Origin: Longimicrobiales bacterium
GTDB taxonomy: Bacteria; Gemmatimonadota; Gemmatimonadetes; Longimicrobiales; Gaopeijiaceae
Assembly (NCBI GenBank): GCA_965238005.1
Contig: OZ250165.1
Location: 864,001-928,000, forward strand
Direction of reading: 5' to 3'
DNA: 64,000 bases
Positions 654 to 26,997 of this stretch are shown here, in pieces; within the stretch, counting starts at the first letter, position 1; each line of letters opens with the position of its first letter. Made by a program: the position numbers and the translations under genes. The notes below the pieces were generated by a model, which did not search any database, was not told the DNA's origin, and saw only the letters and a list, made by a program, of their open reading frames with translations.

Positions 654-1234
<581 letters not shown>

Positions 1235-1578
1235 TGATGAGCGATTTGGGCCTCAGAGGCGCGGTGCGGGGCCGGAGCTTCAAGGTTACCACGCACGCTC
1301 AGGAGGGCCTAGAGCGGCCCCAGGACTTGGTGGAGCGGAACTTTGCGGCCGAGCAACCGAACGAGCTGTGGGTGTCCGACCTCACCTACGTGCGGACCGG
1401 CCACAGGTTCGTCTATGTGGCATTCGTCATCGACGCGTTCAGCCGTAGGATCGTCGGCTGGCAGATCTCCAACTCACTCAGGAGCGATCTGGCGCTTGAT
1501 GCGCTGGAGCAGGCGATCGCCGAGCGGCTCGTCGAGAGCACGGACCGTCTCGTGCATCACTCGGACCGCGGCGTTCAA

Positions 1579-3041
1579 CCCGAACTCAATCGGTCGTCGC
1601 AACGCTCTGTGTCTGATTTGATCGTAGCAACTCGTTCAACGCTTCGGCAGGAGTTCGCCAGCCGAGGGTCTTCCGCGGCCGGGTGTTGAGCGTGAGAGCC
1701 ACGGCGCCAAGGTCGCTGGCACTGTGCACGCTCAGGTCCGTGCCCTTCGGGAAATACTGCCGCAGGAGCCCGTTGGTGTTTTCGTTCGTTCCGCGCTGCC
1801 AGGGGCTCTGAGGATCGCAGAAGTAGATCTGGAGCCCCGTGTCGATCCGCAGTCGCGCGTGCTGAGCCATCTCCGCACCCTGATCCCAGGCGAGCGACCG
1901 CCAGAGCTGTTCGGGCAAGACCGTGACCGCGCTGGTGATGGCCTCGCGAACCGCCTCGGCGCCATGCCCGGCGAGCGCTGGCCCGTTATTGGCGCGGGGC
2001 CCGCGGCCATGGTCCGTCATGCGGGGCAGGTGGAGGAGGAGGGTGAACCGTGTCGTACGCTCGACCAGCGTGCCGATCGCGGAGCTGCCCAGCCCCAGGA
2101 TGAGATCCCCCTCCCAGTGCCCCGGCACGGCGCGGTCGTCCGCTTCTGCGGGGCGCTCGCTGATCAGGAGCTCTGACGTCACGAACCCCTTGCCTCGACT
2201 ACGTGTGCGGGCGCGGGGCACGCGGAGCGTTCGCCCCGTGCGTAGGCAGGCCGTCAGGTCACGGCGCAGAGCGCCGCGGCCCTGGACGTACAGCGCCTGG
2301 TAGATCGCTTCGTGGCTGATGCGCATCGTCGGGTCATCCGGGAAGTCACGGGGGAGCCGATGCGCAATCTGCGCCGGGCTCCACGCGCGACCCCAGCGGC
2401 GAGGCTGCCGGCGCCCATGACGGCGCCCCTTCCACGGCACCGCCGGCCCGCGCACCGTCGCGCCGTTCGGGGCGACAATCCCTCCGGCGAGACGGTCCTG
2501 CACATACTGTCGGAGCGCTGCGTGTGTAGCCAGCTTCGCCAGCTTAGGGCGCCGTGTGGCCCGGTCAGCGTGCCACTGCGCGGTCGATGCGCGATACTCT
2601 AGCCCACCGCTGCGGGTGGCGGCATTGCGCCGCAGCTCTCGGGAGATTGTCGATGCCGCCCGACCGAGCCGGCGCGTGATCTCCCGCACGCCGTGCCTCT
2701 GGACGCGGAACAGGGCGATCTGCTCCCGCTCGGAGAACGACAGATACCTCCCGGAAAGCGGCGGATATGACAGGGTGAGATGCGATGGCGGCATACCACC
2801 ACTTTCCCGAAACCATCGTACCCCGACAACCGGCGACACGCGTGCGTCCGCCGCAGCGGCTTCGCTCGAGCAGCCGGCCGCAATCGCGGCCCAGAACCGC
2901 TGGCGATCCTCACGCCGTCCGACCGGCGGTCGTCCTGGCGAGCGCAGCTTGGCGCGTCCAGATCGATCCAAGCGCCGTCGCTTCGATCCCGTCATCGCAA
3001 CCTCCTCCGCTGGAGCGTTGCGATGACCGATTGAGTTCACC
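1579..3041 (-). mobile_element. IS30-family insertion sequence with CAA target duplication
   Basis: 26-bp subterminal IR GAACTCAATCGGTC(G/A)TCGCAACGCTC; CAA at 1576-1578 and 3042-3044. Confidence 0.9.
1586..2995 (-). CDS. IS30-family transposase
   Basis: STISRELRRN, ISHEAIY, GHWEGDL, WDQGAEM, PWQRGTNENTNGLLRQYFPKG; ATG at 2995 after GGAGGAGG. Confidence 0.95.
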   Translation of the reverse strand: MTGSKRRRLDRSGRAKLRSPGRPPVGRREDRQRFWAAIAAGCSSEAAAADARVSPVVGVRWFRESGGMPPSHLTLSYPPLSGRYLSFSEREQIALFRVQRHGVREITRRLGRAASTISRELRRNAATRSGGLEYRASTAQWHADRATRRPKLAKLATHAALRQYVQDRLAGGIVAPNGATVRGPAVPWKGRRHGRRQPRRWGRAWSPAQIAHRLPRDFPDDPTMRISHEAIYQALYVQGRGALRRDLTACLRTGRTLRVPRARTRSRGKGFVTSELLISERPAEADDRAVPGHWEGDLILGLGSSAIGTLVERTTRFTLLLHLPRMTDHGRGPRANNGPALAGHGAEAVREAITSAVTVLPEQLWRSLAWDQGAEMAQHARLRIDTGLQIYFCDPQSPWQRGTNENTNGLLRQYFPKGTDLSVHSASDLGAVALTLNTRPRKTLGWRTPAEALNELLRSNQTQSVATTD

Positions 3042-3760: not shown

Positions 3761-4771
3761 ATGCAACTCCTGCCACCGCAGTCGATCGATCCGAACGTCC
3801 CGGCCCAGATCCCCGCGGATCAGCTCCAGGACTTCAAGGGGTTCCTGGACGTCGTGCTCGACACCGTGGTCGGTGGCGCGGCGCCCGACGTGCTCACGCT
3901 CGGCCACCAGCTGTGGGGCGGTCTCGCGGCGATCGTCGTCGCGTGGAGCGGGCTCAAGATCGCGTACAGCGGCACGCTAGAGCCGTGGGCGCTCGTGCGG
4001 GTCGTGCTCGGGATCGCGATCCCCCGGACGCTACTCCATTACTACAGCGTCCCGATCCCGGGCGTGGGCTTCACGTTTCCGGCCATGGTGGCGGCCGGAG
4101 GGATCTGGCTCCAGAACCTGTTCATCTCCGATGTCGTGTCGGTCGGCTACACGGAGATGACCGCGCTCGTCCAGGCGTTCGCCGCACGGCTCGGAGCGGC
4201 ATGGTCGGGCGGGAGCCTGATGACCCTCATGACCGAGGGCGTGAACGTCTTCTTCTCGTCCCTCGTCGCGCTGATGATGGGCGTGCCGCTCGTGCTCGGC
4301 CTGGTCGCGCTCTTCTGCCTGACCTACGCGCAGGTGATCTGGGCGCAGGTGGCGCTCGCGATCGTGATCCTGCTCGGCCCGGTCTTCATCCCCTGGCTGC
4401 TGTTCGAGCCGCTCGCGTTCCTGTTCTGGGGATGGTTCCGCACGCTCATGGTCTACACGCTCTACGGCGTCGTGGCCGGAGCCATCCTGAGGGTCTTCAT
4501 GGGCGTCGGCATGGGCTACGTCACGACCTACACCGGTGCTCTGATGGGCACCGGCTCCTCCGACCCGGCGGAGCTGGGGCTGTGGGTCGTCGTCCTCCTA
4601 CCGCTCGTCGTCTCCGGCCTGATGGCCGGCATGAAGGTGGGCGAGCTCGCCGCGATGCTCGTCTCAGGGTCCGGGTCCGTCGGGTCGGGCATGATGGCGC
4701 TCGTGGTCCGTGGAGGCGGACGCCTCAGCGCTGCCGCGAACCCCGCCCGCCCCCCAATCCCCGGAGGCTGA
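3761..4771 (+). CDS. virB6: VirB6/TrbL-like type IV secretion membrane protein
   Basis: Polytopic membrane protein with LLGPVFIPWLLFEPLAFLFWGWFR; T4SS gene context. Confidence 0.8.
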   Translation: MQLLPPQSIDPNVPAQIPADQLQDFKGFLDVVLDTVVGGAAPDVLTLGHQLWGGLAAIVVAWSGLKIAYSGTLEPWALVRVVLGIAIPRTLLHYYSVPIPGVGFTFPAMVAAGGIWLQNLFISDVVSVGYTEMTALVQAFAARLGAAWSGGSLMTLMTEGVNVFFSSLVALMMGVPLVLGLVALFCLTYAQVIWAQVALAIVILLGPVFIPWLLFEPLAFLFWGWFRTLMVYTLYGVVAGAILRVFMGVGMGYVTTYTGALMGTGSSDPAELGLWVVVLLPLVVSGLMAGMKVGELAAMLVSGSGSVGSGMMALVVRGGGRLSAAANPARPPIPGG

Positions 4772-4782
4772 AGGAGACGTCC

Positions 4783-5451
4783 ATGAACCGAGAACACGAT
4801 GCCGGCCGCGAGTACGCGGAGATCTGGGGCGAGACCGTCGAGGCGAACCGGAAGCTCCGGACGCTGGCGATGATCCTCGCCACCACATGCCTCACGCTCG
4901 GCGTGCTCCTGCTCCGGGTCGCGACCGTCGAGCCGCCCCGCCCGATCGTGGTGCGGGTCGACGAGGTCGGCCGCGCCGAAGCGGTGGCCTACGAGGCCGC
5001 AACGGCGCAGGCGGATCCGCTCGATCCCACGACCAAGTACTTCCTGAACCGGTTCATCGCCGACTTCTATTCGCGGCGCCAGGCGACGATCGAGGAGCAC
5101 TGGACGCGGAGCCTCCGCTTCCTCTCGACCGAGCTGGCGAACGCGGCGTTCACGCGCGACGGCGCCGAGGTCGCCGCCATGGCGGCCGGCACCGCCGACA
5201 CCGAGATCCAGGTCGAGCAGGTCGTGCTCCGCATCCACCCCGCACCGGAGGCGCCGCACGGCGCGACCGCCGACTTCGACCTGGTCCGCCTCCGGCAGGG
5301 GCAGGAGACGCTGAGGGAGCGGTGGTCGATCACGGTCCGGTTCACGTTCCTCACCGTCATCCCCTCCGAGCTCGTCGTCTACAACCCGATGGGCATCCTC
5401 ATCACCTACCTCCAGGCCGACCGTGCCCTGGTCACGGAGCAGCCCAGGTGA
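4783..5451 (+). CDS. virB8: VirB8/TrbF-family conjugal transfer protein
   Basis: Single TM followed by PIVVRVDEVGRAEAV, C-terminal NPMGILITY; RBS AAGGAG. Confidence 0.85.
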   Translation: MNREHDAGREYAEIWGETVEANRKLRTLAMILATTCLTLGVLLLRVATVEPPRPIVVRVDEVGRAEAVAYEAATAQADPLDPTTKYFLNRFIADFYSRRQATIEEHWTRSLRFLSTELANAAFTRDGAEVAAMAAGTADTEIQVEQVVLRIHPAPEAPHGATADFDLVRLRQGQETLRERWSITVRFTFLTVIPSELVVYNPMGILITYLQADRALVTEQPR

Positions 5452-6595: not shown

Positions 6596-6687
6596 CATCG
6601 GGGAGGGTTGGCATGTGCACACCCATGCCACCCTCCCACGCGGGGTCGCTCCCAGCCATGGATCCCTACGGGAAGGTTGTCACAGCG

Positions 6688-8205
6688 ATGCTGAGGCCGG
6701 CGACGCTCGTCCTCATGGGCCTCGCTTCGGCGGCCGCGATCGCCCACGCCTTCCGGGCGCCGTTCCCCGGACCCGGCGGCAACCCCGTGCTGGACTTGAT
6801 CGCCTACCACGATCCGGGCTTCCACACGGTGATCCGCGTCTGGTACTACGTGGCGCCCGCCGTCGCCGTGGTGCTCTTCGGCAGCCTCGGCCTCTCGGTC
6901 TGGAGAGTCTGGCTCCAGCCACGAGCGGGAGGAGGGCGCCGGGGCACGTTGCCACCCTGGCCCGCCTCGCCCGAGGACGAGACACCATCGCTGGTGATCG
7001 GCGAGCTCCACCATCCCGTCGTCCCGCGCGAGAGCGAGCGGCCGTCCTGGCTCGTCGTTCCCGAGACGGGGCTCTACACCGGCGTGCTCATCGTCGGGGC
7101 GGTCGGCTCCGGCAAGACCTCGGCCTGCATGTATCCGTTCGCCCAGCAGCTCCTCTCGTGGCAGGCCGACCGCCCCGCACGCCGGGCCAGCGCCTTGGTG
7201 CTCGAGGTCAAGGGCGACTTCTGCCACAGCGTGCGGGGGATCCTCGAGGAGGCCGGCCGCGTGGACGACTACCTGGAAATCGGGCTGGACGGGTCCTGGC
7301 AGTGGAACCCGCTCGACGATCCGCTGCTCGACACTTACTCGCTCGCCTACAGCGTCTCATCCCTGATCAACCAGCTCTTCGGCAAGAGCCGCGAGCCATT
7401 CTGGCAGCAAGCCTATACGAATCTCGTGCGCTGGATCGTCGAACTGCACCGGCTCCTGCCGGGGGGCTGGGTCACGCTGCAGGACGTCTACCGCTGCACG
7501 ATCGACGCGGAGCTGTTCGCGCAAAAGATCCGCGCGGCCCGGGACCTGGTGGCTGAGGCGTGCCCGGCGCGCGTCGTCATCTCCCACGACGACATGATCG
7601 GCCATCCGGAAGCGCTGAATGACTGGGTCTGGATATATACCTCCGGTGAGGACACGGTGACGTGCCGGCTCGACCCGGTCCTCCGGGATCGGCTCGCCGA
7701 GCTCGAGATCCCGTTCGAGACCGAGGAAGGCGAGAGCGGCGCAGGCAGCGAACTCAGGGAGCAGGTGGAGGCGATCGAGCGCTGGTACCTGAATGACTGG
7801 ATGGCGCTCGATGCCAAGCTCCGCACCTCGATCGTCGAGGGCATCTCCGTCTTCCTCTCGCTCTTCGACCAGCCGCAGGTCGCGAGCGTGTTCTGTCCGC
7901 CGCCGCCGGAATCGGATGAGTCCCCATCTATACATATAGGTACCGATGCGCCCGACGAGGATGCGGCGGCCGTCCGGCCCATGCCGGGCCTCCGCCGCCG
8001 GCTGCCGCCGCTCGCCGAGTTGATCGAGGGCGGCAAGGTCCTCGCGCTCAACATGCCCGCGGGCGCGAACCCGGCGCTCGGACGCGCGATCGGCGTGCTG
8101 CTCAAGAACGCCTGGATGCAGGCGCTGCTGCGGCGGCCCGCCGAGGCCGCCCGCCGGCCCGGCCGCTACCTCCGGCCCGCCGTGTTCATCTGCGACGAGT
8201 ACCAG
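6688..8205 (+). pseudogene. virD4: VirD4/TraD-like coupling protein, N-terminal part (interrupted by an integrated element)
   Basis: N-terminal TMs, Walker A GAVGSGKT, LEVKGD, WNPL, FWQQA; homology stops at Walker B FICDEYQ. Confidence 0.88.
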
Positions 8206-8266
8206 TCCGACAAGAAAAATATCATAACGCTATATGTAATAATTAGTTATGATGCCGTCGCTTGCC

Positions 8267-8292
8267 CGCGATCACCCCTGCAATCACCCTTT
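8267..8292 (+). promoter_or_regulatory. Putative integrase arm-type sites (left att)
   Basis: CGCGATCACCCCTgcaATCACCCTTT, matching 12243-12268. Confidence 0.7.
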
Positions 8293-8575
8293 GCGCGGCG
8301 GGTAGCGGAATCCCATGGAGCAGCCCCGTTCGCCGTTCAGTCGTTCGGCCGTCCCGTGGGACCCGGCGTCGTCCCATAGCGACTCCCGGCAACTCAAGTT
8401 CGACAGCGGCCGCATCTCGGGGATGAGACACGCCTCTCAAAATGGCCGGCCCGCAGGGCGGCTGTCCAGTGAAGCAACCGGCAACCCGAAAGCCGCGACC
8501 ACATCGCGCGTCCCTGCAAGTTATCATGATGAGCGACGGGACCCTGGCCACACTTCGGGCGAGGAGAAGGGGATT

Positions 8576-8908
8576 ATGACCAAGGCAGACCTGGTCGAGC
8601 AGGTCGCCGATGCGGTTGGACCGCGAGTCACCAAGAGGGACTGCGGGCTGGTGGTCGACGCCTTCCTCGACGCTGTGAAGGACGCGCTTGCGCACGGGGA
8701 GGGCATCGAGCTCCGGGGCTTCGGCACCTTCAAGGTGCGGCACCGCAAGGGCCGCAAGGCCCGCAACCCCAGGACCGGCAAACCTGTGGAGGTCCCGCCC
8801 CGCGCGGTGCCCGTCTTCCAACCGTCGAGACACCTCCGCAGGCAGGTGGACCGAGGCCACAGCTCGTCCGTCACGGGGGAGCCCTTGGAGGCCGTTGGCA
8901 AGCCGTAG
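8576..8908 (+). CDS. HU/IHF-family DNA-binding protein
   Basis: MTKADLVEQVA..IELRGFGTFKVRHRKGRKARNPRTGKPVEVP..PVFQPS. Confidence 0.95.
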   Translation: MTKADLVEQVADAVGPRVTKRDCGLVVDAFLDAVKDALAHGEGIELRGFGTFKVRHRKGRKARNPRTGKPVEVPPRAVPVFQPSRHLRRQVDRGHSSSVTGEPLEAVGKP

Positions 8909-9509
8909 CCTGCCCGCCACGACCGCGTCGCTGGCCGTGGGTGGAAGGGCTGGCTCACGCCCCTTAAGGTGCGTAAGCCAGCCCACGCAGTGTTTAACAC
9001 TGCGGCCTGGCAAGGGGGCGCTACGCCCCCCCTTAGACCCCCCGGCTTCCCGTCCCGCTGCCGGAGCGGCGGGCGGCGGGGTGCGACGCCCCCCGAACCC
9101 CGTCGCCGGTGCTGCGGCTGAGCGCTGCCCCGTCGTGGCCGACGATCCGGCCGACGTGATCCTCAACGGACCCGCAGCCGGGAACTTGGTCGTGACCGGC
9201 AAGGGCGTGAGGTTCCGCCCGTGGGGGAGTCCCGGCCGACGGGGTGGCGACCGCCGGGGCGACCGGCCCCGAGTCCCACCGAGCCCGGAACACCGCTCAC
9301 ACGGGGATTCCGGGCGTTCCGGGGCCGGTTGGGCGGAATCCGAGGCCGTAGGATCGCCTGTGACGCGCGAACTCGACACCCGGAGGGGTATCCCCCGGTT
9401 TCCCGACCGCCCTTCGCAGCCCCTTTGCTCGAATCACAGCAAAGAGGTTCTGCCCTGGGACGTTTCGGCTGCTCTTCAACGCACTGGTCGCGCGGCGTAG
9501 ATTGCTATC

Positions 9510-10325
9510 ATGATTAAGCTTACCGACATCTGGCCAGTCGAGAACCCGCACGATTACAAGGTGCATTTCGCGACTCGGAACAAAGATCGCACTGAGCCGC
9601 TTCTCGTCCTGGCACGCGACGCCGATGAATGGAAACGGTGGCAGGAATACCGCCCGAAAACGGACCAATTCAACCGGAAGTTCATCTTCTCGCTCGCGCG
9701 TGTCTACGACGAGGAGGACAGTTGGTTGTTTGGCGGGGTCTTCCGAGTCATTGAGCGCCTGCCCGAACGATACCAGGTTGAACTGACCGAACAAGGTGGA
9801 CCATTCGTTCGTCGCCTGAAGCTTCGCTCGCCCTATCGCGGCCGGGCGCGACGCGTGAACATGGAGGGGAGACTTGACGAGTTCGAGGTACAGGAAATCC
9901 TCCCCGAGCGCTATTCGGGCCTTCCATTCCCGGGCTTCGAGAGCATCGACCTAGCGTTCAGCGAGTTCGAGGTCCTCCACCGCAACAACCGCCCGGACTG
10001 GCAGGCGGCTTTGGAGAGCGTCAGTGGCGTTTACTTGATTACCGCGCGTACCCGAAGCGCGGTCCGTCAATACGTTGGCGCTGCCTACGGGGAACAGGGC
10101 ATCTGGTCGCGGTGGGTTGATTACCTGAAAACCGGTCACGGCGGAAACGCCGCGCTTCGAGAGCTTATTGGAAACGGGGGGTTACGTTACTGTCGCCGGC
10201 ACTTCCGGTTTGCTCTCCTCGAACACATGTCCCGGAATACGCTGGACGGGTCGATTCAGGACCGCGAGGCGCACTGGAAGAGAATCCTCGGAACCCGGGA
10301 CCGAGGAGGACTCAACCGGAACTAG
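9510..10325 (+). CDS. GIY-YIG nuclease family protein (COG3410-like)
   Basis: SGVYLIT..QYVGAAYG..IWSRW..GHGGN..REAHWK..GLNRN. Confidence 0.85.
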   Translation: MIKLTDIWPVENPHDYKVHFATRNKDRTEPLLVLARDADEWKRWQEYRPKTDQFNRKFIFSLARVYDEEDSWLFGGVFRVIERLPERYQVELTEQGGPFVRRLKLRSPYRGRARRVNMEGRLDEFEVQEILPERYSGLPFPGFESIDLAFSEFEVLHRNNRPDWQAALESVSGVYLITARTRSAVRQYVGAAYGEQGIWSRWVDYLKTGHGGNAALRELIGNGGLRYCRRHFRFALLEHMSRNTLDGSIQDREAHWKRILGTRDRGGLNRN

Positions 10326-11062
10326 CACTAGCGCTAGGCCAACCACATGAGGTCCCAGCATGCGGGTGCGCCTTCTCGAGACCCCAGCCTCCTGCGCCGC
10401 TGGACGCCGCGCCCGAACCCGCCGCCGGTGTGCTCGTGGCGGAGCGGCACCACCCCGGCCCGCTCCCGGCGCGATGCCGACGCACCATGCCACCGGTTGG
10501 AGGCATGGTGTCGGTCGCCCGGATCCCGAATTGCCGCGTCGAGGCGGGAGCCGGGCGACAGCCCGTGGACTTGCGCCGGAGCGCGGACCTGTCGGGGGTC
10601 GAAGGGGCGGAGCCCCTCGCCAGCCCTTGCCGGGGACCCGCGAAGCGTGGCCCCAAGGGGTATGCTGGCTTAGCCACATTAGAGTGGCTCAAGCCAGCCC
10701 TGCGGACGCCTCCGAAACGCGCTCCGAGCAGCCACCCGGAACAGCGGGCGAAGGGCCAACTCTTGCCCGCCAGATCGGCCGCCCGGTCGTTCATGAGCCG
10801 GTCGCTCCGAGGACCGAGAGCGGGGGCGGTAACGACGACGGCGGCGACTACGATGATCGGCGGGGAGCCCACCAGGCGCTCGTTCACGACGGCGGCGCTC
10901 TCTGCCGCGTGGCCGCGTTCCGCCCTACCGTAACCCCTCGGCGACCGGCGATCGTGCGTCAGAGGCGATCCTACGGCCCGCAGCTTTCCGGAAATGCCCG
11001 TGGAACGCCCCGGAAACGGCCTCTGAGCCCGTCGCGGAACCGGCGGCACAACAGGGGGGTGG

Positions 11063-12229
11063 TTAGGCTTCGGTGCTCGCTCTCCGCCCCGCCAGATACT
11101 CCGCCCACTGCTCCATCAGGACGCGGCGGCGCTCGAACAGGTCCGAGCGGGCGTAGGCGGCCTCCACCCTGTTGCGGACCGCGTGCGCCAGCGCCGCCTC
11201 CATAACCGCGTGCGGCGCGTCGGTGCGCTCCGCCGCCCAATCGCGGAAGCTCGAACGGAAGCCGTGCGGCACGGTCGCGATCCCGAGCGCCTTGAGAAGC
11301 CCGGCGAACTCGAAACTCGACAGCACCAGCCCCCGCGCCGACGGGAACACCCACTCCGAACGAGGCGCGTACGCCTTCGCCTCGGCCAAGATCTCCCTCG
11401 CTCGCGCCGACAGCGGCACCCGGTGCTCGCGCCGGCTCTTCATCCGCTCCGCCGGAATCGTCCACTCCCCGGCCTCCATGTCGATCTCCTCCCACCGCGT
11501 CCCACGCACCTCGCCCGACCGGCAGGCCGTCAGCACGAGGAACTCGATGCCCAGCTTCACCGCGACCCTCGCCTCGGCCCGCCGCACGGCCTCGACCGCC
11601 GCGGCCACCTCCCCGTAGGGCAGCGCCTTGTAGTGCTTCTGGATGCGAGGGGGTTTCGGCAACGCCGCCCCGATCGCATCGCCCGCCGGGTTGTCCACGC
11701 GGTAGCCCTGCGCGATCGCCCACCTCATCACCGTCGAAATCCGCTGACGGACCCGCTTGGCCGTCTGGTGCTTCTCGTTCCAGATCGGAAGCAACACGCC
11801 CATCACATCGGCCGATGAAATCCGGTCCACCCGCTTCCGCCCGACCCCCGGAAACGCGTACATGTGTAGCGTTGACATCCACTGGCCCGCGTGCCTGTCG
11901 GTCCAGGTCGGACGGTGCATCGCGAACACCTTGGCGGCCGCCTGCTCGAACGTCGGCACCGAGCGACGGGGTGTTGCCCTGGGGTCCCCGCCCGCTCTGG
12001 CCACCTTGCGGTTGGCCAGCGCGGCGTCGCGGGCCTCGGCCAGCGTCACGAGGCGGACGGGACCGAGCCCCAATTCTCTGCGCTTGCCGTGGACGAACAG
12101 GCGCTGGATCCACTGCTTGTAGCCGGACGGCTTGACCCGGAGCACGAGGCCGTGCTCGTCCCAGTAGAGGCCCGGCTGCCGGACGCTCCGCACGAAGGCG
12201 GCTGTGAGTTTCTTGCCGTGTCTGCCCAT
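11063..12229 (-). CDS. P4-like tyrosine integrase with N-terminal arm-binding domain
   Basis: GKRRELGLG..TLAEAR arm domain; catalytic TACRSGE, MK, HGFRSSF, LAH, AY. Confidence 0.95.
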   Translation of the reverse strand: MGRHGKKLTAAFVRSVRQPGLYWDEHGLVLRVKPSGYKQWIQRLFVHGKRRELGLGPVRLVTLAEARDAALANRKVARAGGDPRATPRRSVPTFEQAAAKVFAMHRPTWTDRHAGQWMSTLHMYAFPGVGRKRVDRISSADVMGVLLPIWNEKHQTAKRVRQRISTVMRWAIAQGYRVDNPAGDAIGAALPKPPRIQKHYKALPYGEVAAAVEAVRRAEARVAVKLGIEFLVLTACRSGEVRGTRWEEIDMEAGEWTIPAERMKSRREHRVPLSARAREILAEAKAYAPRSEWVFPSARGLVLSSFEFAGLLKALGIATVPHGFRSSFRDWAAERTDAPHAVMEAALAHAVRNRVEAAYARSDLFERRRVLMEQWAEYLAGRRASTEA

Positions 12230-12232
12230 CTG

Positions 12233-12268
12233 GTCACCCTTTCGCGATCACCCCTCTGATCACCCTTT
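12233..12268 (+). promoter_or_regulatory. Putative integrase arm-type sites (right att)
   Basis: Three RTCACCCYT units directly upstream of the integrase start codon. Confidence 0.7.
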
Positions 12269-12384
12269 CGGTGCTGGAACACACCGAACGCTCTGACACG
12301 GCAGTATAATATAAGTAGTTTTATAACAACAACTTCACTTGCTCTACGGGATTGCCTTAAACCTATCTGGACGGTGTGCAGAAG

Positions 12385-12921
12385 GAGTACCAGGCGTTCG
12401 CCACCGTGGGCCAGGACGACCCCGCTGGCGACGAGAAGGCCTTCGCGCTGACGCGGCAGTGCCGCTGCATCCCGATCGTCGCCACGCAGTCGATCTCCTC
12501 GCTCCGCTCCGTTCTGTCCGGCACGGACGCCTGGCGCACACTGGTCCAGACGCTCCGCACCCGGATCTTCCTGTCCTTGAGCGACGAGTCCTCGGCCAGG
12601 ATCGCGTCGGAGATGTGCGGCAGCGTCATGAAGACGCAGCCCTCCTACACGTTCACCGAGACCACGGGCCGGCCGGAGTTCTCGCTCCTGTCGGGACGCG
12701 CCGGAGGCGGACGGGGCACGATCGGCGCGAGCAAGTCGTTCCGGCAGGCGCGGGAGCCGGTCTTCACGCCCCGGGACTTCAGCCTCCTCGCCAACTATCA
12801 GGCGATCTGCCTGCCCTACGATGGCACGAAGTCCCTGCCGGCCCGGCGCGTCTACCTGAAGCCCCACTACCTGCCGAGGGGCACGGGTTACTGGCGGTTC
12901 CGCGAGGAGGGCCGGCTGTGA
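12385..12921 (+). pseudogene. virD4: VirD4/TraD-like coupling protein, C-terminal part
   Basis: EYQAFATVG..RQCRCIPIVATQSISSL..RTRIFLSLSD continues the N-terminal half in frame after excision. Confidence 0.88.
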
Positions 12922-13901
12922 AGCGCGCGAGCGGGATCGCGCACCTGCGACCGTTCCTGCCGGGCCTCGAGGCCGTGCTCGAGGATCCGGAGGTCTCCGA
13001 GCTCATGATCAACGGGCCGGGGAACGTCTGGGTCGAACGCGGCGGCGAGCTCGAGCCCATCGAGGCGCCGGCTCTCACCGCCGCCGCGCTCTACCGGGCG
13101 GCGATCCACATTGCGCGGCCGCTCGGGCTCGATCCCGCCGCCCGGCCCGTCCTCGACGCCCGGCTCGACGACGGCTCGAGGGTCGCCATATGCACGCCGC
13201 CCGCGAGCCCCCACGTGGCGATGACGATCCGCCGGTTCGGGGGCCGTGCGTTCTCCGCCGAGGACCTCGTCGGCCAGGGGGCTCTCCCCGAGACGGTGTT
13301 CCGGGCCGCCCGCGACGCCCTCCATTCCCGGCGCAACATCCTGGTCTCGGGAGGCACCGGCTCGGGCAAGACCACACTGCTGAACGCCCTGATCGAGCTG
13401 CTCCCCGAGGAGGAGCGGATCGTCGCCATCGAGGACACGCTCGAGCTCAGGATCGACCGGACCAACTGCCTGCGCTTCGAGGCCGGAGCCGCCGGCCTCG
13501 ACTCACCCGTGTCGATCCGCGACCTGGTCCGCCATGCGCTCCGCCACCGGCCCGACCACATCGTCGTCGGCGAGGTCAGGGGCGGCGAGGCCGCCGATCT
13601 GCTGCAGGCGCTGAACACCGGCCACGGCGGATCGCTCACCACCGTGCACGCGAACAACGCCCGCTCCGCGCTGTCGCGACTGGCGAGCTGCGCCATGCAG
13701 GCCGGAGGCGCCCTCCCCTGGGAGGTCACCTGCCGAGGCGTGGTCGACGGCATCCATCTGGTCGTCCACATGACCCGTCGAGGGGGCCGACGCTTCGTCG
13801 AGGAAGCGCTCCGTGTGAAGGGCTACGAGGCGGCCGCCAACCGCTGGCTCACCGAGACGATATGGAGGAAGGACGATGAAGAACAAACAGAAAAGGAGTG
13901 A
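12918..13901 (+). CDS. virB11: VirB11/CpaF-family secretion ATPase
   Basis: ELMINGP, GGTGSGKTT, IEDTLEL, LRHRPDHIVVGEVRG, NTGHGGSLTTVHA; GTGA coupling to virD4. Confidence 0.92.
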   Translation: MKRASGIAHLRPFLPGLEAVLEDPEVSELMINGPGNVWVERGGELEPIEAPALTAAALYRAAIHIARPLGLDPAARPVLDARLDDGSRVAICTPPASPHVAMTIRRFGGRAFSAEDLVGQGALPETVFRAARDALHSRRNILVSGGTGSGKTTLLNALIELLPEEERIVAIEDTLELRIDRTNCLRFEAGAAGLDSPVSIRDLVRHALRHRPDHIVVGEVRGGEAADLLQALNTGHGGSLTTVHANNARSALSRLASCAMQAGGALPWEVTCRGVVDGIHLVVHMTRRGGRRFVEEALRVKGYEAAANRWLTETIWRKDDEEQTEKE

Positions 13902-13905
13902 GGAC

Positions 13906-14109
13906 ATGGAAAGCGACGAGAAGATCGTCCGCGTCGAGACGCTCGACGACTTCGACCGCGAGCTCGCGCGCGACGGGGGCGAGGCCCTCGAGGTGCCAGC
14001 ATCGCTGGCCGAGCAGTACGGCCTCTTCCCCGAGGACGTGGGCACCGAAGACGAGATCCGGGACGCCTCGGAGGATCCGCACGGCCGGGAGGAGGAGGAG
14101 GACCGATGA
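13906..14109 (+). CDS. Small acidic hypothetical protein
   Basis: RBS (GAGGA) plus ATG; stop overlaps the ardC start (ATGA). Confidence 0.55.
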   Translation: MESDEKIVRVETLDDFDRELARDGGEALEVPASLAEQYGLFPEDVGTEDEIRDASEDPHGREEEEDR

Positions 14110-15134
14110 AACACGACGAATACCACCGCCAGTTCGCCGATGCGATCATCGAGCAGATCCGCCAGGGCACGGCACCGTGGCAGAAGCCCTGGGGGCCGGG
14201 CGAGCGTGTGCTCCCCGCTAACGTCGATACCGGACGCTCCTACGCGGGAGGCAACAGCCTGCACCTTGCCGCCGTCCAGCAGGAGCGCGGCTACGGCGAC
14301 GTGCGCTGGGGAACCTACCGCCAGATCCAGGCCCGGGGCGGACAGGTGCGGAAGGGCGAGCAGGGCACCCGCATCCTCTCATTCCAGGACCACCGGAGGA
14401 TCGCCGTCACCGACGAGCGCGGCCGGCCCGTCAGGGACAACGAAGGCAAGCGCGTCTACCGCCACGAGCGGATGCGCGCGCCCGTCGTCCGGCAGTACAC
14501 CGTCTTCAACGCAGAGCAGGCGGACGGGCTCCCGGCCCGGCCCGCGCCCGCTGCCGAGCCGCTCTGGAAGGCCCACCAGGAGGCCGAACGCGTCCTCGCG
14601 GACAGCGGCGTCCCCGTCCGTCACGTGGCGGGGGACCGGGCGTACTACAACCTGAACCGCGACGAGATCGTGCTGCCCGAGCGGGCACAGTTCCCCTCTG
14701 CCAATCACTACTACCAGACCGCGCTCCACGAGCTGGGGCACAGCACGGGCCACCCGGAGCGGATGAACCGCGCCACCCTCGTCGAGGGGATGAGCGAAGG
14801 GTTCGGCTCGCCGGCCTACGCGAAGGAGGAGCTCCGCGCCGAGATCAGCGCCATGATGACGGGCGAGCGGGTCGGCGTGGGCCACGACCCGAGCCGGGGC
14901 GCCGCCTACGTCGAGGGCTGGGTCGCCGCCCTCAAGGAGGACCCCCGCGAGATCCGCCGCGCCGCGGCCGACGCACAGAAGATCTCCGACTTCGTGCTCG
15001 CCCGAAGCCGTGAGCGCGAGCCCGAGCGCGAGCCGGCGCCCGTGGCGGCCACCCGCGCGCCCGCCCGGGAGCCCGCCGTCCGGCCGGAGCTTCCGCTGCC
15101 GCTACCGAACCGGAGCTTCGGCCCGCGCCGCTGA
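14106..15134 (+). CDS. ardC: ArdC-like ssDNA-binding antirestriction protein with zincin domain
   Basis: PWQKPW, YAGGN, WGTYRQ..GGQVRKGE, YTVFNAEQ, HELGH, YAKEELRAE. Confidence 0.92.
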   Translation: MKHDEYHRQFADAIIEQIRQGTAPWQKPWGPGERVLPANVDTGRSYAGGNSLHLAAVQQERGYGDVRWGTYRQIQARGGQVRKGEQGTRILSFQDHRRIAVTDERGRPVRDNEGKRVYRHERMRAPVVRQYTVFNAEQADGLPARPAPAAEPLWKAHQEAERVLADSGVPVRHVAGDRAYYNLNRDEIVLPERAQFPSANHYYQTALHELGHSTGHPERMNRATLVEGMSEGFGSPAYAKEELRAEISAMMTGERVGVGHDPSRGAAYVEGWVAALKEDPREIRRAAADAQKISDFVLARSREREPEREPAPVAATRAPAREPAVRPELPLPLPNRSFGPRR

Positions 15135-17308: not shown

Positions 17309-18295
17309 TCACTTGCGCTTCTGCAGCCGTGCGAGCTGCGCGGCGCCGTTCCGCTGCGCGAGAAGCCGCTCGCCGTAGCGCTGCACCATCGAGGCGCTCT
17401 TCCAGCGTCCGGCCTGCATGATTGCGGGGATCCCGATCCCCGAGGCGATCATGTCCTGGGCCGCGCCCACGCGCGGGCTGTGCCCGGAGATCCGCCGCAC
17501 CATGTCGGAAGGCAGGCCCGCGCGCTCGGCCATCGCGCGGTAGATGCGGGGCACCTGGCTTGCGTCGAGCGCCTCGCCCAAGGCGCCGTCCTTCGTGACC
17601 GAACGGAACAGCCTGCCCGAGGCGATGCCGCTCCGGTCGAGCCACGCCCGCACCAGCTTCACGGTGTCGCGGTGGAGGTAGAGCGTCGCGCCGCCGCCGC
17701 CGGAATCGGTCTTGCCGCACCGCACGAGGAGCGAGGCCGATCCTCCCCTATCCACGGTCATGTCAACGACTTGCAGCGCGACCAGCTCGGATCGCCGGAG
17801 CATCGCGTCGTAGGCGACGGCGAGGAGGGCGCGGTTCCGCAGGTCGATTGGCCGGTCGCCCGCGGCCGCGATCAGGCGCCGCCGGAGCCTCCAGGTCAGC
17901 CCCTGTACCTGCCTCTGCCGAGACCCATTCCTTCGGCGCATGCGCTGGAGCGCCCGCTGCACGGCGGCGTGCTCGAGCGGGCTTTGCTCCCCGGCCGCCC
18001 TGTGCGCCACGGTGAGGCTGAAGACGTAGCGGCGCACGGTGGCCGGGGCCCGGCCACCGGCCATCGCATCGACGTACGCCGCCACCGTCTCCGCTCGCGC
18101 GGGCAGCGGCGAGAGGTCCCGCTCGGCGCACCACGACGCGAACGCGTCCAGATCCGCCCTGAGCGCCCGGACGGTATGGCCGCTGAGGGCACCCCGGGCG
18201 TCATCGAGGCAGGCATCGAGGCGTTCTCCGGTTTGTGACAATGTGATGGCACGGTCTGAAGGACCTGACACGCGTCCCGGACCCGTAATCCGCAT
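17309..18295 (-). CDS. Cre-like tyrosine recombinase
   Basis: RNRALLAVAYDAMLRRSEL, GKTD, SGHSPRVGAAQDM, IPAIMQAGRW, MVQRY (R-K-H-R-W-Y set as in Cre); ATG after GGAGG. Confidence 0.93.
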   Translation of the reverse strand: MRITGPGRVSGPSDRAITLSQTGERLDACLDDARGALSGHTVRALRADLDAFASWCAERDLSPLPARAETVAAYVDAMAGGRAPATVRRYVFSLTVAHRAAGEQSPLEHAAVQRALQRMRRRNGSRQRQVQGLTWRLRRRLIAAAGDRPIDLRNRALLAVAYDAMLRRSELVALQVVDMTVDRGGSASLLVRCGKTDSGGGGATLYLHRDTVKLVRAWLDRSGIASGRLFRSVTKDGALGEALDASQVPRIYRAMAERAGLPSDMVRRISGHSPRVGAAQDMIASGIGIPAIMQAGRWKSASMVQRYGERLLAQRNGAAQLARLQKRK

Positions 18296-18330
18296 AAACA
18301 CCTCCGCAACAACAACATACGTGAATTCAG

Positions 18331-18364
18331 CAAGCTCCCGATAGTTACAACTATCGGGAGCTTG
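18331..18364. other. lox-like recombination site (right), inverted relative to the left site
   Basis: CAAGCTCCCGATA-GTTACAAC-TATCGGGAGCTTG; perfect arms; spacer is the reverse complement of the left spacer. Confidence 0.9.
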
Positions 18365-18389
18365 AAAACCCTGTCGCGAAAGGTTTGGG

Positions 18390-21300
18390 ATGTCGGAGGA
18401 AACGTGCTGGTCTGGTCAGCCGCGGGCAGAAGGTGGCGGAATCACTGGTCTCCGGCGCCAAATCGCGCGCCAGCCGGGACTTCTTGTGGGCGCCGGGCTG
18501 GTGTTTGCGCGTACCGCGTCCGCGACATGGCGGGGATTGCTCGTCGCGTCGCTCCTCGCCCCCGCTGCGGTGGCTTCCGCCCGCCCCGCCTCCGCACAAG
18601 CCGAGATCGAACTCCTGAGTGCGACGCTCACGCCGGCACAACAGCCGCCGCTGACGCTCACCGACGGTAGGATCCAGACCTTCATCGGCTGCCAGCAAGC
18701 TGTGTCCGAGCGCCGATGCAGCACCCACATGACGGACCACGACTTCACCGAAGAGGCCGTCAACTACATTGTCAAGACCTTAGTGTATGTACGCGAGGAA
18801 AGCGCTGAAAATGTCGCCCCAGCTATCTCGATAGTTTTCAATCCGGGGTTGTCGACCCGTCTCCAGACGATGACGCTGCAGGTCGGGGATTCTGCCTTGG
18901 CTTTCCCGGCGGCACGTGGATCCTACGATGGCAACAGCTTCTCTGATCGGACCTGGGATATTGGGTTCGAATGGACCGAAGGAACCCCCGTATCGATCCG
19001 GCTGACGCGTCCGAACGTCGCCCCCACGGCGGTCGACGGTGGAGTCGGGACGTACCTGAACGAGGCGTACACGTTCGAGGCGTCGGATTTCGGGTTTTCG
19101 GACGTGGACGAGGAGCACGGCCAGAGCCTTCAGAACGTGAGGATCGTGGCGCTCCCCGCCTCGGGGACGGTGATGCTCGGAGGCACGGCGGTGACGGCCG
19201 GCGAGTCGGTGGCGAAGGGGGACCTCGACGCCGGACGGCTCACGTACACCCAGCCCGGCACCGACCCGGAGGATGCGAGCTTCACCTTCAAGGTGAGCGA
19301 CGGCACGGCGGAGAGCGATGGGCCGTACACGATGGACATCGAGGTGCGTTCCCCGGCGCCGGGGCCGCCGGAGAACCTGACCGCCGCCGCAGGCGACGGC
19401 GCGGCTACCCTTGGCTGGGAGGCACCGGCGAACAGCGGCGCCTCGGCGATCGTCCGCTACGAAGTCCGCCATGCGGCGGCCAACTCGGTGCCGATGAACA
19501 CGGCCTGGCAGTCCGTCGGGCTGACTTTGAGCCACTCGATCACCGGGCTGACGAACGGGCAGGTCTACACGTTTGAGGTGCGCGCGGTGAACGGCTCCAA
19601 CCCGGCCGAAGGCCCTGCGGCGGAGGTGCGGGCCACGCCAGCACCAGTCGTCTCCATCACCCCCGGTTTCCTGTCCGTTGCCGAAGATGCCGGCGAGGCC
19701 GTGCTGACGGTTTCGCTGCACCGGCCCGCCGAGTCCGCGCTGTCGGTTTCCTGGCATACGCAGGATGAACGCGCGGACGCGCCGAACGACTACACGGCCC
19801 GGCAGGATGCGGTGACTTTCGCCGCCGGTGAAGACCGGAAGACCGTTTCCGTGCCCATCGTGGACGACGCGGTGCGGGAGGACCCGGTCCATGACGTACA
19901 CGAGACGTTCTTCGTCATCCTCGAGGCAGGCCAGGGCTACAGCCGGAGCGACAGCTCGTACGCCCTCGTGGAGATCGTCGACAACGACGGAGACGCCGCG
20001 CCGGACGTGACGCCGCCGCGGCTCCTCCAAAGGACGGTGAACGGCACCACGCTGGTGCTTACCTACGACGAGACGCTCGACGACGCGTCGGTCCCGGCCC
20101 CGGGCGACTTCGTCGTTGCGGCGGCTGGGAACACAATCAACGTGACCCAAGTGAGCGTCGACGGATCGAGAGTGACGCTGACGCTGGCCGTCCCCGTCCA
20201 GCCCAGCCAGGCGGTGTCGATCGACTACACGCCGGGGGCGACCCCGATCCAGGACGCGTCGGGCAACGACGCGGGTCCGATCTCGGGCATGGACGTACGG
20301 CCGCCGCAGCTCACCCGGGCGACGGTGAACGCAAGCAGGCTGGTCCTGACCTACGACGAGACGCTTGACGGCGCGTCGATCCCGGCCCCGGGCGACTTCG
20401 TCGTGACGGCGGCGGGGAGCACGGTCGGAGTGAACGGTGTGAGCGTGGGCGGCTCGGCGGTGACGCTGACGCTGGCCACCGCCGTCCAGGCGAACCAGGC
20501 GGTGACGCTCGACTACACGCCGGGCGCGAGCCCGACCCAGGACGTGGCGGGCAACGACGCGGCGGCGCTCTCCGGGCAGGCCGTGACCAACAACACTCCG
20601 GGAAGCGGTGAAGGCAGCGGCGGTGGTACTGGTGATCCCTCGGTGCCGGGCGCACCTGCGTCCCTGACGGCGACGGCGGGGGACGAAGAGGTGGCGCTCG
20701 TCTGGAGCGCGCCCGCGGACGATGGCGGCGCACCCGTCACCGGCTACGAGTACCGCTACACGGTGGGAGACGCGGTGCCCGGGGATACGCCGTGGCAGTC
20801 CGCCGGGCTCAACCTCGAGTGGACGGTGACCGGCCTGACCAATGGCCAGCAGTATGCCTTCGAGGTGCGGGCGCTGAGCCGCGTGGGCGAGGGTGCAGCA
20901 CGGGGAGCCCTGGCCACGCCGGTTGGGCGGCTGGGCGTGCCCGCATCCCTGACGGCGACGGCGGGCGACGAAGAGGTGGAGCTGGCCTGGAGCGCGCCCG
21001 CGGACGATGGCGGCGCGCCCGTCACCGGCTACGAGTACCGCTACGCGGCGGGAGCTGCGGTGCCCGAGGATACGCCGTGGCAGTCCGCCGGGCTCAACTT
21101 CGAGTGGACGGTGACCGGCCTGACCAATGGCCAACGATACGCCTTCGAGGTGCGGGCGCGGAACCGCGTGGGCGAAGGCGAGGCGCGGGGAGCCCTGGCC
21201 ACGCCGGTGGGGCGGCCGGGCGTGCTAGCATCCCTGACGGCGACGGCGGGCGATGGAGAGGTGGCGCTCGTCTGGAGTGCGCCCGCGGACGATGGCGGCG

Positions 21301-25396: not shown

Positions 25397-26997
25397 GAGT
25401 CTGCGCCGCAGAACCCTGCGGCGGCTATCTTTGGTGGTAGCGAAGGCATTGGGAAGGCTTGCGGATCACCGAGGGGGGTGAATGGGAACGACATTTCGAC
25501 CGTACGATCCGGAGCAGATGTTGTTGCTGCCTCCGGATCTTCGGGAGTGGGTGTCGGAGGGTCATTTGGCGCACCATGTGAGCGACCTGGTGGACGCGGT
25601 GGAGCTGAGCGCGTTCTACGGGCGGTACCGGGGGGACGGGCGGCGCAACTCGCCGTACGACCCTCGGATGATGGTCAAGGTGCTGATCTACGCGTATGCG
25701 ACGGGCACCTTCTCGTCGCGGAAGATGGCGAGGAAGCTGGAGGAGGATGTCGCGTTTCGGATGCTGGCGGCGGAGAACTTCCCGAAGCACCGGACGCTGT
25801 GCGAGTTCCGCAAGCGCCATCTCGGGGATTTCCGGGCGGTGTTTGTGGAGGTGGTGATGCTCGCGCGGGCCTTGGGGCTGGCGGGGCTTGGCAGGGTGTC
25901 GGTGGACGGGACGAAGGTTCGGGCGAACGCGAACAAGCGCAAGGCGATGAGCTACGGCCGGATGGTGACCGGGGAGCCTCGGCTGGAGGCGGAGATCCGG
26001 GGGCTGTTGGAGAGGGCCGAGGCGGTGGACGAAGCGGAAGACGAGCGCTACGGCGAGGAAGCATGCGGAGACGAGGTGCCGGAGGAGCTCAAGCGGCGCG
26101 AGGACCGGCTGGCGGCGATCCGGGAGGCGAAGGCGCGCCTGGAAGCCGAGCAGAGAGCGGCGGACGACGCACGGGGCCGCAAGCCGGGGCAGACGCGCAA
26201 CCCGAAGGGCGGCAGGCCCTACAAGCGGGAGTACGGAGAGCCGGACGAGGCGGCGCAGAGCAACTTCACGGACCCTGAGAGCCGGATCATGAAGACGAGT
26301 TCGGAGGGGTTCCAGCAGTGCTACAACGCACAGACGGTCGTGGAGGGGGAGAACCAGCTGGTGGTCGGGGCCGAGGTGACGGACAACGCGAGCGACCAGG
26401 GCCAGCTGGTGCCCATGGTCGACGCGGTGGCGCAAGCGTACGGCGAGACGCCGGCGCAGGTGCTGGCGGACACGGGCTATTGCAACGAGCGGGATCTCGA
26501 GGAACTGGAAGAGCGAGACATCGACGGGTATGTGGCGCTGGCCCGGGAGGGCAAGGCCGCCCCCACGGTTGACAAGGAGGAATATCCGGCGAAAGTCCGC
26601 ATGGCGGAGAAGCTGGCGAGCGAAGATGGCCGCAGACGCTACGCACGGCGAAAGTCGCAGGCCGAGGCGCCCATCGGCTGGATCAAGGAAGTGATGGGCT
26701 TTCGACGATTCAGCTTCCGGGGCCTCGAGAAGGTCCGGGCCGAGTGGACCCTCGTGTGCCTGGCACTCAATGTGAAGCGGCTGCACACCCTTCAGGCGGC
26801 ATGACTGCACGAGGGTTCACCCGCATCTGCCGGCGCGAGGGCTCTCGTAGCTCTCTTGCCCCCCCAACGCATCCATTCCGCTCTCCCGATCCGTCGCAGA
26901 CACAAGTCCTCAACCTCCCAATCACCCGGATCCGCCTCGCCGCGGACGGCTCGATGACCATTCGGCTCAGTCAGCTGTGCTTCTGCGGCGCAGACTC
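25397..26997 (+). mobile_element. IS1182-family insertion sequence, CTAG target duplication
   Basis: IR GAGTCTGCGCCGCAGAA / TTCTGCGGCGCAGACTC; CTAG at 25393-25396 and 26998-27001. Confidence 0.92.
25482..26804 (+). CDS. IS1182-family transposase
   Basis: PYDPRMMVKVLIYAY..SSR, VDGTKVRANA, TDPESRIM, YNAQ, LADTGY, GFRRFSFRGLEKV. Confidence 0.93.
   Translation: MGTTFRPYDPEQMLLLPPDLREWVSEGHLAHHVSDLVDAVELSAFYGRYRGDGRRNSPYDPRMMVKVLIYAYATGTFSSRKMARKLEEDVAFRMLAAENFPKHRTLCEFRKRHLGDFRAVFVEVVMLARALGLAGLGRVSVDGTKVRANANKRKAMSYGRMVTGEPRLEAEIRGLLERAEAVDEAEDERYGEEACGDEVPEELKRREDRLAAIREAKARLEAEQRAADDARGRKPGQTRNPKGGRPYKREYGEPDEAAQSNFTDPESRIMKTSSEGFQQCYNAQTVVEGENQLVVGAEVTDNASDQGQLVPMVDAVAQAYGETPAQVLADTGYCNERDLEELEERDIDGYVALAREGKAAPTVDKEEYPAKVRMAEKLASEDGRRRYARRKSQAEAPIGWIKEVMGFRRFSFRGLEKVRAEWTLVCLALNVKRLHTLQAA

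Follow-up and report, generated by a model that had tools for sequence, protein, structure and literature searches.

The window analysed here is a stretch of 64,000 nucleotides from a Longimicrobiales bacterium of the phylum Gemmatimonadota (contig OZ250165.1, positions 864,001 to 928,000 of the forward strand), whose genome is a single contig of 4.84 Mb; genome coordinates are window coordinates plus 864000. The feature under study is a gene for a conjugative coupling protein (T4CP) that is split by an insert of 4.2 kb. Homology of this gene to its full-length paralogues runs from 6658, and the reading frame is interrupted directly after the residues FICDEYQ. The N-terminal part (6658..8205, plus strand; 516 amino acids, aa) has two hydrophobic N-terminal stretches, a Walker A motif (GAVGSGKT) and a Walker B motif (VFICDE), and ends in ...DEYQ; the upstream open reading frame (ORF) passes from ...AVFICDEYQ into 58 codons of unrelated insert (SDKKNIITLY...). 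The frame picks up again downstream at EYQAFATVGQDD and stays open until the stop codon at 12921, giving a C-terminal part of 178 aa plus stop (12385..12921, plus strand). With EYQ common to both parts, rejoining them would yield 691 aa in frame; three intact paralogues of this genome are each 689 aa long. At the break lies a 9-bp core, GAGTACCAG, which occurs exactly twice in the window, 4188 bp apart, against 0.27 occurrences by chance; only one of 100 shuffles gave two. The left copy, the attL crossover region (8197..8205, plus strand), codes for E-Y-Q right behind the Walker B aspartate, and the right copy, attR (12385..12393, plus strand), is the second direct repeat. The N fragment thus keeps the Walker B D-E, the core spans the E-Y-Q codons and the C-terminal third of the ATPase is severed. 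An element-donated start codon for the C-terminal piece (GTG at 12376) was considered and ruled out, as the sibling element at 710 kb of the genome has an in-frame TAG there.

The N part is 74-75% identical to the three intact paralogues and the C part 90-98%. The C part matches the Pfam families TraG-D_C (2.2e-7) and TrwB_AAD_bind (3.4e-5); the N part alone has zero Pfam matches and a weak NCBIfam match to a VirD4-like family (2.6e-9) that falls below the cut-off. An intact paralogue at genome 841 kb matches TrwB_AAD_bind (4.9e-10; 39.3 bits, cut-off 20.5) and TraG-D_C (1e-7; 32.3 bits, cut-off 22), the latter from residue 506, that is, from AVFICDEYQ with the Walker B motif. A sequence search of the PDB with the intact protein as query gave only insignificant P-loop matches. 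Because the intact paralogue passes both Pfam thresholds and VirB-like neighbours are present, the interrupted gene is, by its domains and context, that of a VirD4-like coupling protein of an integrative and conjugative element (ICE).

The insert carries an open frame on its minus strand for a P4-like heterobivalent tyrosine integrase (11063..12229; 388 aa). Its arm-binding, core-binding and catalytic domains, which together make up the lambda/P4-like heterobivalent architecture, are all present above the curated Pfam cut-offs (Arm-DNA-bind_3, PF13356, 1.3e-14; Phage_int_M, PF22022, 6.6e-28; Phage_integrase, PF00589, 2.3e-18). Read by eye, the translation shows the motifs ACRSGE, HGFRSSFRDW and EAAYARSD, which we take to hold the candidate catalytic R...H-x-x-R...Y residues. 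The motif RTCACCCYT has eight matches in the window against 1.6 expected, a number reached in none of 100 shuffles, and five of the eight lie in the insert ends (at 8271, 8283, 12233, 12247 and 12259, all on the plus strand). Two of these (ATCACCCCT and ATCACCCTT, 8271..8291) are kept in sibling elements, and the three directly upstream of the integrase start (GTCACCCTT, ATCACCCCT and ATCACCCTT, 12233..12267) are kept in all close siblings. Lying on both arms and apart from the core, they are putative arm-type integrase sites. The GC content falls to 0.57-0.62 at both insert ends versus about 0.70 around them. An AT-rich tract at the left end (8206..8260, plus strand) is a candidate bending or IHF-binding region by its low GC content and sibling conservation; this end is 89% identical over 206 bp in the sibling at genome 702163, and adjoins the core also in a copy from a Bryobacterales genome. 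At the other end, an AT-rich tract with the integrase-proximal core arm, which aligns with the siblings, occupies 12296..12384 (plus strand) and ends in ...GCAGAAG ahead of the core.

The insert also encodes a DNA-bending protein of the IHF/HU type (8576..8908, plus strand; 110 aa; Pfam Bac_DNA_binding, 5.5e-31), for which the NCBIfam models of IHF-beta (1.2e-26) and IHF-alpha outscore those of HU. An IHF-like homologue lies within 7 kb of the integrase in eight of the 11 loci in which the integrase is at least 80% identical. A consensus scan of the insert for promoters and terminators returned nothing. The original prediction, made from the letters alone, had described the break at FICDEYQ with its duplicated core and in-frame restoration on removal of the insert, an apparently intact P4-like integrase, RTCACCCYT arrays and AT-rich tracts. 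The ORFs, the core count and the 689-aa paralogues bear out the first part of this description, and the domain matches, the five repeats set against expectation and the drop in GC content the second; it had overlooked the IHF-like gene and the cargo.

Between the integrase and the IHF-like gene lies a slot with variable content. In the window it holds a gene for a 271-aa protein (9510..10325, plus strand) that matches the UzuA profile of the Uzume anti-phage system in PADLOC (PDLC03973; E 3.6e-46, with residues 23-271 aligned to positions 23-278 of a 278-position profile) and has zero Pfam or NCBIfam matches. Hence, we predict it to be an Uzume-type defence gene, Uzume, which is named in papers on defence systems, being a single-gene system. 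The slot of the copy at 702-710 kb of the same genome encodes a HEC-05/GmrSD-type protein (E 4e-211), with a trypsin-like protein beyond its IHF-like gene; that of a copy in another Longimicrobiales metagenome-assembled genome (MAG; locus L023) encodes McrB and McrC, and that of a copy at 2110 kb is empty. Since the IHF-like gene stays near the integrase in eight of the 11 loci while the cargo varies, the two form a conserved frame and the defence genes an exchangeable load. On either side of the window cargo stand a 19+19-nt palindrome, which follows the IHF-like gene (8946..8984), and a related copy at 10664-10701, as well as the two halves of a 46-nt inverted repeat with 78% complementarity (9344-9389 and 10933-10978). 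Homologous segments border the different cargo of L023, and the bracketing repeats may be terminators or cargo-exchange sites.

A scan of genome contigs gave the best 80 of 592 confirmed integrase relatives, to which a genome search at the family level contributed two further close copies. In all, nine copies in five genomes have an integrase that shares at least 86% identity with that of the window. Seven of these copies sit at the same T4CP site, one sits elsewhere (2110 kb) and one (L303), broken inside an arm, is uninformative. Both junctions are visible in four of the seven (the window copy, 702162/710041, L023 and G471) and one junction in the other three (329088, L302 and L017). In the window genome itself, four of the 29 family matches are integrases of this clade (88-100% identical), and there are 12-15 T4CP pieces. 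Its copy at 702162/710041 is a 7.9-kb element between T4CP pieces, with the core at both junctions and arm and AT-rich ends as in the window; the 329-kb copy (junction 329088) retains only the integrase-side junction with the T4CP C part, its left end being missing.

The copy in the Bryobacterales MAG (Acidobacteriota; L018, the same as G471) is 99.4% identical in element DNA over 2269 bp, with 99.2% identity in the integrase and 99.3% in the UzuA-like protein. At its integrase-side end GAGTACCAG is joined to a T4CP C part that is 56% identical to that of the window. The N part, which is 50% identical to the reference paralogue, lies about 8.4 kb away and ends in ...VFVCDEYQ; it runs into the left end of the element, whose initial 27 bases, identical to those of the window, precede an insertion sequence (IS) that breaks the arm. 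In this AT-rich left arm two copies of a 1.4-kb IS (97% identical; transposase IS1595-like by eye) lie 25 bp apart and separate the core from the arm repeats (reverse complement of L018, 1289-4113; G471:C1, about 4.603-4.607 Mb). A paralogue in the same genome has a perfect empty site. In L023, on the other hand, the T4CP is nearly that of the window (95% identical in the N part, 99% in the C part), and the element, with an 88% identical integrase, is inserted in the opposite orientation, with GAGTACCAG still a direct repeat at both junctions. L302 and L017 show the same inverted junction, so that three T4CP-site copies are reversed; L017 carries GAGTATCAG, the same as its own T4CP. These insertions are independent because the G471 element is about 99% identical in a flank of only about 50-56% identity, and because L023 has the same T4CP with an 88% identical integrase in the other orientation. 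The distribution supports the T4CP Walker-B site as a primary site, hit repeatedly and independently, and movement between ICE backbones only about 50% identical implies that the island is mobile on its own, now or recently. The proposal made beforehand, that the Walker-B-coding DNA of a VirD4-like gene serves as attB, is upheld by this repeated use of one exact site in several genomes, which also answers the check suggested with it, whether integrase homologues sit in split virD4 genes.

Unoccupied sites are also present in the window genome, in paralogues with a perfect core at 493.9 kb (GACGAGTACCAGGCGTTC), GAATACCAG in three cases and GAGTACCAA in one; across all paralogues examined, the unoccupied sites read GAGTACCAG twice, GAATACCAG four times, and GAGTACCAA and GAATATCAA once each. 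A phylum-wide search, with two candidates scored per genome, found the T4CP family in 40 of 401 genomes. Among viral contigs there was no close relative of the integrase (best identity 51%), and in a metagenome scan with an unspecific 14-base arm motif none of the 80 loci listed encodes a family member. From the run labels, the habitat of the carriers appears to be sponge-associated.

The junctions point to how the site might be recognised. In the window element the integrase-side arm ends in ...AAG ahead of the core and the far arm begins with TCC behind it, so that the joined ends, a 13-bp attP core, would read GGA-GTACCAG-TCC, in which inverted triplets enclose a 7-bp segment. The inverted lineage has ...AAGGA at the end of its integrase-side arm, then CTGGTAC-TC, and its far arm begins with C; here the 13-mer is unchanged but reversed with respect to the arms. 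The sequence of the T4CP site, CGA-GTACCAG-GCG, accounts for the 9-bp identity in either orientation. The identity of the overlap usually sets the target and orientation of integration, and the junction pattern, as far as sequence can tell, fits this rule.

We accordingly favour, as probable, the reading of the insert as a minimal site-specific integrative island whose attB is the E-Y-Q-coding DNA behind the Walker B aspartate in the VirD4-like T4CP gene of ICE-type elements. With its N-terminal arm-binding domain the heterobivalent integrase would contact the RTCACCCYT sites in the two arms, the island's own IHF-like protein would bend the AT-rich tracts, and strand exchange would take place within 7 bp of overlap (GTACCAG), between the inverted triplets GGA and TCC of attP. 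Integration would duplicate 9 bp and split the T4CP gene, which precise excision would restore. The stretch from the integrase to the IHF-like gene is a cargo slot, with anti-phage genes that differ between copies. The motif was probably chosen as one that is conserved across very different conjugative elements, where insertion costs the cell nothing and which supplies a vehicle for spread. From cell to cell the island could travel as an ICE passenger with T4CP supplied in trans by the three intact paralogues, through an oriT of an unrecognised kind, or by some other route.

Several observations weigh against this reading or narrow it. The specificity for the T4CP site is not absolute. At the 2110-kb copy (2109814; L098) the integrase-side end and the 9-bp core abut a tyrosine/glycine-rich gene that is not a T4CP, and the first ~250 bp and any second copy of the core are missing; this is the one clear off-target case. 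The copy (genome 2109802-2113620) lies between stretches with tyrosine/glycine-rich opposite-strand translations (YYGPYY, DYTYYDWY). The more distant siblings L019 and L020 (85% identical) share a junction, ...GGA-TTCCCAG, with another overlap and in other genes: L019 has entered a second P4-like integrase gene at its 3' end, and L020 an adenosine deaminase gene. They keep GGA, and their next seven bases, TTCCCAG, are two changes away from GTACCAG. The assignment of overlap and half-sites as GGA-N7-TCC is itself deduced from such junction sequences only. In addition, between the window copy and that at 702-710 kb, flanks and elements show similar divergence (about 84-88%), and a single old insertion, duplicated together with the ICE, could be the source of both. 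Searches of the 4.2-kb insert with Pfam, NCBIfam and PADLOC recognised no excisionase-like or replication gene, and no relaxase or mobilisation family was matched among its ORFs (Pfam on four, NCBIfam and PADLOC on three each); of the two components of an integrative and mobilisable element (IME), the integration module, with integrase and att-type ends, is present, and no family of a mobilisation gene was matched.

The bearing of the siblings on specificity is clearest from the integrase tree. Seven sibling loci with 80-85% identity were looked at (L019-L022 and L024-L026, with L072 and L306 left out), and none of them has a T4CP within 7 kb (E<=1e-6). Five (L021, L022, L024, L025 and L026) share a GC-rich non-coding junction amid unrelated neighbours, and a search of these five (80-82% identity) with Rfam found no RNA gene at the target. 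In the tree of 39 rows all T4CP-site copies fall in one 11-row clade with support of 98/97, which includes L019 and L020, paired on a long branch, and has the intergenic group as its sister. This topology is most simply read as Walker-B specificity in the ancestor of the clade, followed by a single change of target and a single reversal of orientation. The objection that the T4CP might be a secondary site is not borne out: siblings at 80-85% identity do land in other targets, on separate or derived branches, and the copies at 86% and above are mostly at the T4CP. Within the intergenic group, the integrases of L024, from a Gemmatimonadota MAG, and L026, from a MAG titled Gammaproteobacteria, are near-identical (branch lengths 0.005 and 0) and have the same junction, which reflects either a further case of transfer between phyla or the misbinning of a 40-kb contig.

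Contigs, the only data used here, of four runs from four studies (X1, X9, X11 and X13) cover the interior of the element with 0-6 differences per piece (window 7600-13000). In X13 one contig joins 8196 to 12385, skipping 4188 bp, though its shorter side has just 24 letters, and loose contig ends at 8205 and 12385 run on into T4CP sequence. The T4CP flanks are 10-100 times deeper than the insert in these runs, and the same genome and its relatives carry naturally empty paralogues; for both reasons the empty-site joints are not assignable to the window locus, which again tells against the favoured reading, as does the want of any back-joining (circle) joint among the 15 joints listed of 16. A 30-letter replacement joint (8611 to 12966), probably from a related locus, recurs in all four runs.

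The host element is represented in the window by genes for VirB6/TrbL-like (3761..4768) and VirB8-like (4771..5448) proteins upstream of the T4CP gene and for a VirB11-like ATPase (12918..13901) and an ArdC-like protein (14106..15134) downstream of it, all on the plus strand. Its homology to other ICE copies starts only at about 3321, behind IS-type transposase genes, and the genome has VirB4-, VirB9- and VirB10-like genes at four sites elsewhere, none of which adjoins the window copy. The host element in the window is therefore a remnant truncated by insertion sequences, which is a further point against the favoured reading and bears on any role of the island in conjugation. A fuller ICE copy at 812-852 kb has the same backbone together with AlpA-like, VirB4-like, VirB9-like and VirB10-like genes and two further tyrosine recombinases; no relaxase was recognisable in the parts of the ICE backbone that were scanned.

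The original prediction went on to propose that the island is a hyperparasite that blocks conjugation of its host ICE until its own excision; in its full form this reading has the island spread by riding in the ICE or by being mobilised by it. The split does remove the C-terminal third of an essential ATPase in a manner that is exactly reversible on paper, as gene-interrupting excision switches of the skin type or of 'active lysogeny' would require, three intact T4CP paralogues could act in trans, the element has moved between very different ICE backbones, and the same idea has been raised for IMEs in traG of Firmicutes (PMC5357655, PMC5704250). At the window locus itself the proposal fails: with the host element truncated at about 3321 and without adjacent virB4, virB9 and virB10, nothing functional is switched there. 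As a general account we consider it unlikely, given the same truncation, contig joints that cannot be placed at the window locus, the want of a circle joint among those listed and of a relaxase gene among the insert ORFs searched, and the decay of several island copies, with left ends missing at 329 kb and 2110 kb, an IS in the arm of G471 and L303 broken.

Somewhat more plausible, if still short of an even chance, is the view that these are ordinary defence islets which benefit the host and are kept in T4CP genes since dead or selfish ICE DNA is neutral ground, with no interplay with conjugation. Every identified cargo is anti-phage (UzuA, HEC-05/GmrSD and McrBC), the ICE copies of this genome are much broken up, and further backbone genes harbour many other integrases. 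Neutral retention nevertheless leaves unexplained why a single 9-bp site is reused to the base in T4CPs with only about 50% identity, and in both orientations, which requires an integrase specific for the motif. That the recurrence is only apparent, a single ancient insertion having been inherited through ICE duplication, is highly improbable. The window and 702-710 kb copies, similarly diverged in element and flank, would agree with such descent; it is contradicted as a full explanation by the G471 element, 99% identical in a flank of about 50-56% identity, by the inverted copies of L023, L302 and L017, and by the T4CP of L023, 95-99% identical to that of the window with an 88% identical integrase in the other orientation, so that it may apply to the window/702-710 kb pair only.

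The site-specific island thus remains our preferred interpretation, and it can be extended, speculatively and with rather less than even confidence, to a radiation of P4-like integrases specialised on conserved motifs of conjugation genes. Such integrases would retarget or reverse by exchanging or flipping the 7-bp overlap between GGA-N7-TCC half-sites, and an IHF-like protein of their own would render them independent of the host and broad in host range, making them readily reprogrammable parasites of ICEs across phyla that ferry defence genes. A host-independent module of this kind, if real, would explain the presence of a 99%-identical element in Gemmatimonadota and Acidobacteriota.

The genome has a wider population of related integrases. 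About 19 further P4-like integrases (30-59% identical to that of the window) have a junction 190-340 bp beyond each start, for example at 839667, 2751568, 2834518, 739275, 2749220, 2732837, 756059, 2768535 and 787245, and ICE backbone starts behind several of these junctions. Three are at the start codon of a T4CP gene, one is at about aa 191 and one (30% identical) at about aa 257-265 (CTGCACCGGC); other sites are a VirB11-like gene (window ~13638), the backbone upstream of the T4CP in two cases (~5035 and ~5926) and a multi-copy recombinase gene in one. T4CP pieces at 493 kb and 2735 kb begin at one common breakpoint, CACCGGCTC. Elsewhere in the window, a XerC/D-like recombinase gene followed by one for a giant Calx-beta/FN3/SWM-repeat surface protein of 1771 aa (17312-23702) recurs as a pair at genome 815240-819980, at the start of another ICE copy; the pair looks like a conserved left end of the ICE family and suggests tandem ICE copies. 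Several IS elements lie in the window (654-3040, 25482-26801, 27637-28796 and 30878-32037), including two copies about 3.2 kb apart of an IS3-type pair of 283-aa and 104-aa ORFs, and the integrase flanks at genome 996 kb and 1525 kb enter segments of about 480 bp that are 99-100% identical at 10 or more sites. The fragmentation of the ICE copies appears to be due to IS activity.

The concept of islands in coupling-protein genes is already known. Landing in the conjugation machinery of other elements has so far been described in Firmicutes with serine recombinases: reports exist of streptococcal and clostridial IMEs at fixed internal sites of traG (VirD4), maff2 and snf2 of Tn5252-superfamily ICEs, with two different traG sites in use (Coluzzi et al. 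2017, PMC5357655; Guedon et al. 2017, PMC5704250). Their authors state that insertion into traG should abolish ICE transfer and call the IMEs hunters or parasites of conjugative elements (PMC5357655, PMC5704250); nested elements figure as "matryoshkas" in a 2025 Faecalibacterium paper (PMC12084326). Among the papers listed by full-text searches, from whose coverage subscription journals are absent, titles and the openings of abstracts pointed to no tyrosine-integrase island in a coupling-protein gene and to no such islands of Gemmatimonadota. New here are the class of recombinase, an IHF-like protein encoded by the island itself, the Walker-B site, the use of both orientations, the defence cargo and a near-identical copy across phyla. 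The same strategy has thus arisen with a different class of recombinase in uncultured Gemmatimonadota and Acidobacteriota. One 9-bp catalytic-motif site used in ~50%-identical T4CPs and in both orientations, with siblings of another overlap landing elsewhere, forms a natural series that makes testable how heterobivalent integrases change targets, whether such islands police or exploit ICEs and by what means defence genes pass from phylum to phylum, and the compact module of integrase and IHF-like protein could be of interest as a self-contained integration tool.

Comparison with known systems places the island between two groups. With the traG IMEs of Firmicutes it shares small size, an attB at a fixed internal site of a coupling-protein gene, disruption of that gene and the use of more than one site per gene; theirs are serine recombinases, usually accompanied by replication or mobilisation genes. 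The island instead has a P4-like tyrosine integrase, arm sites, its own IHF-like protein, defence cargo and no recognised mobilisation gene, and is found in Gemmatimonadota and Acidobacteriota, at the Walker B codons and in either orientation. With the lambda/P4-type integrases it shares domain architecture, arm-type repeats on both arms, AT-rich tracts between arms and core, and a short attP/attB identity. No satellite genes of P4 were recognised in the insert, in which Pfam, NCBIfam and PADLOC see the integrase, the IHF-like protein and UzuA alone. Whereas the lambda/P4-type integrases insert mostly at sites such as the 3' end of a tRNA or tmRNA gene, the island encodes its own bending protein and enters the internal catalytic-motif codons of a gene of another mobile element.

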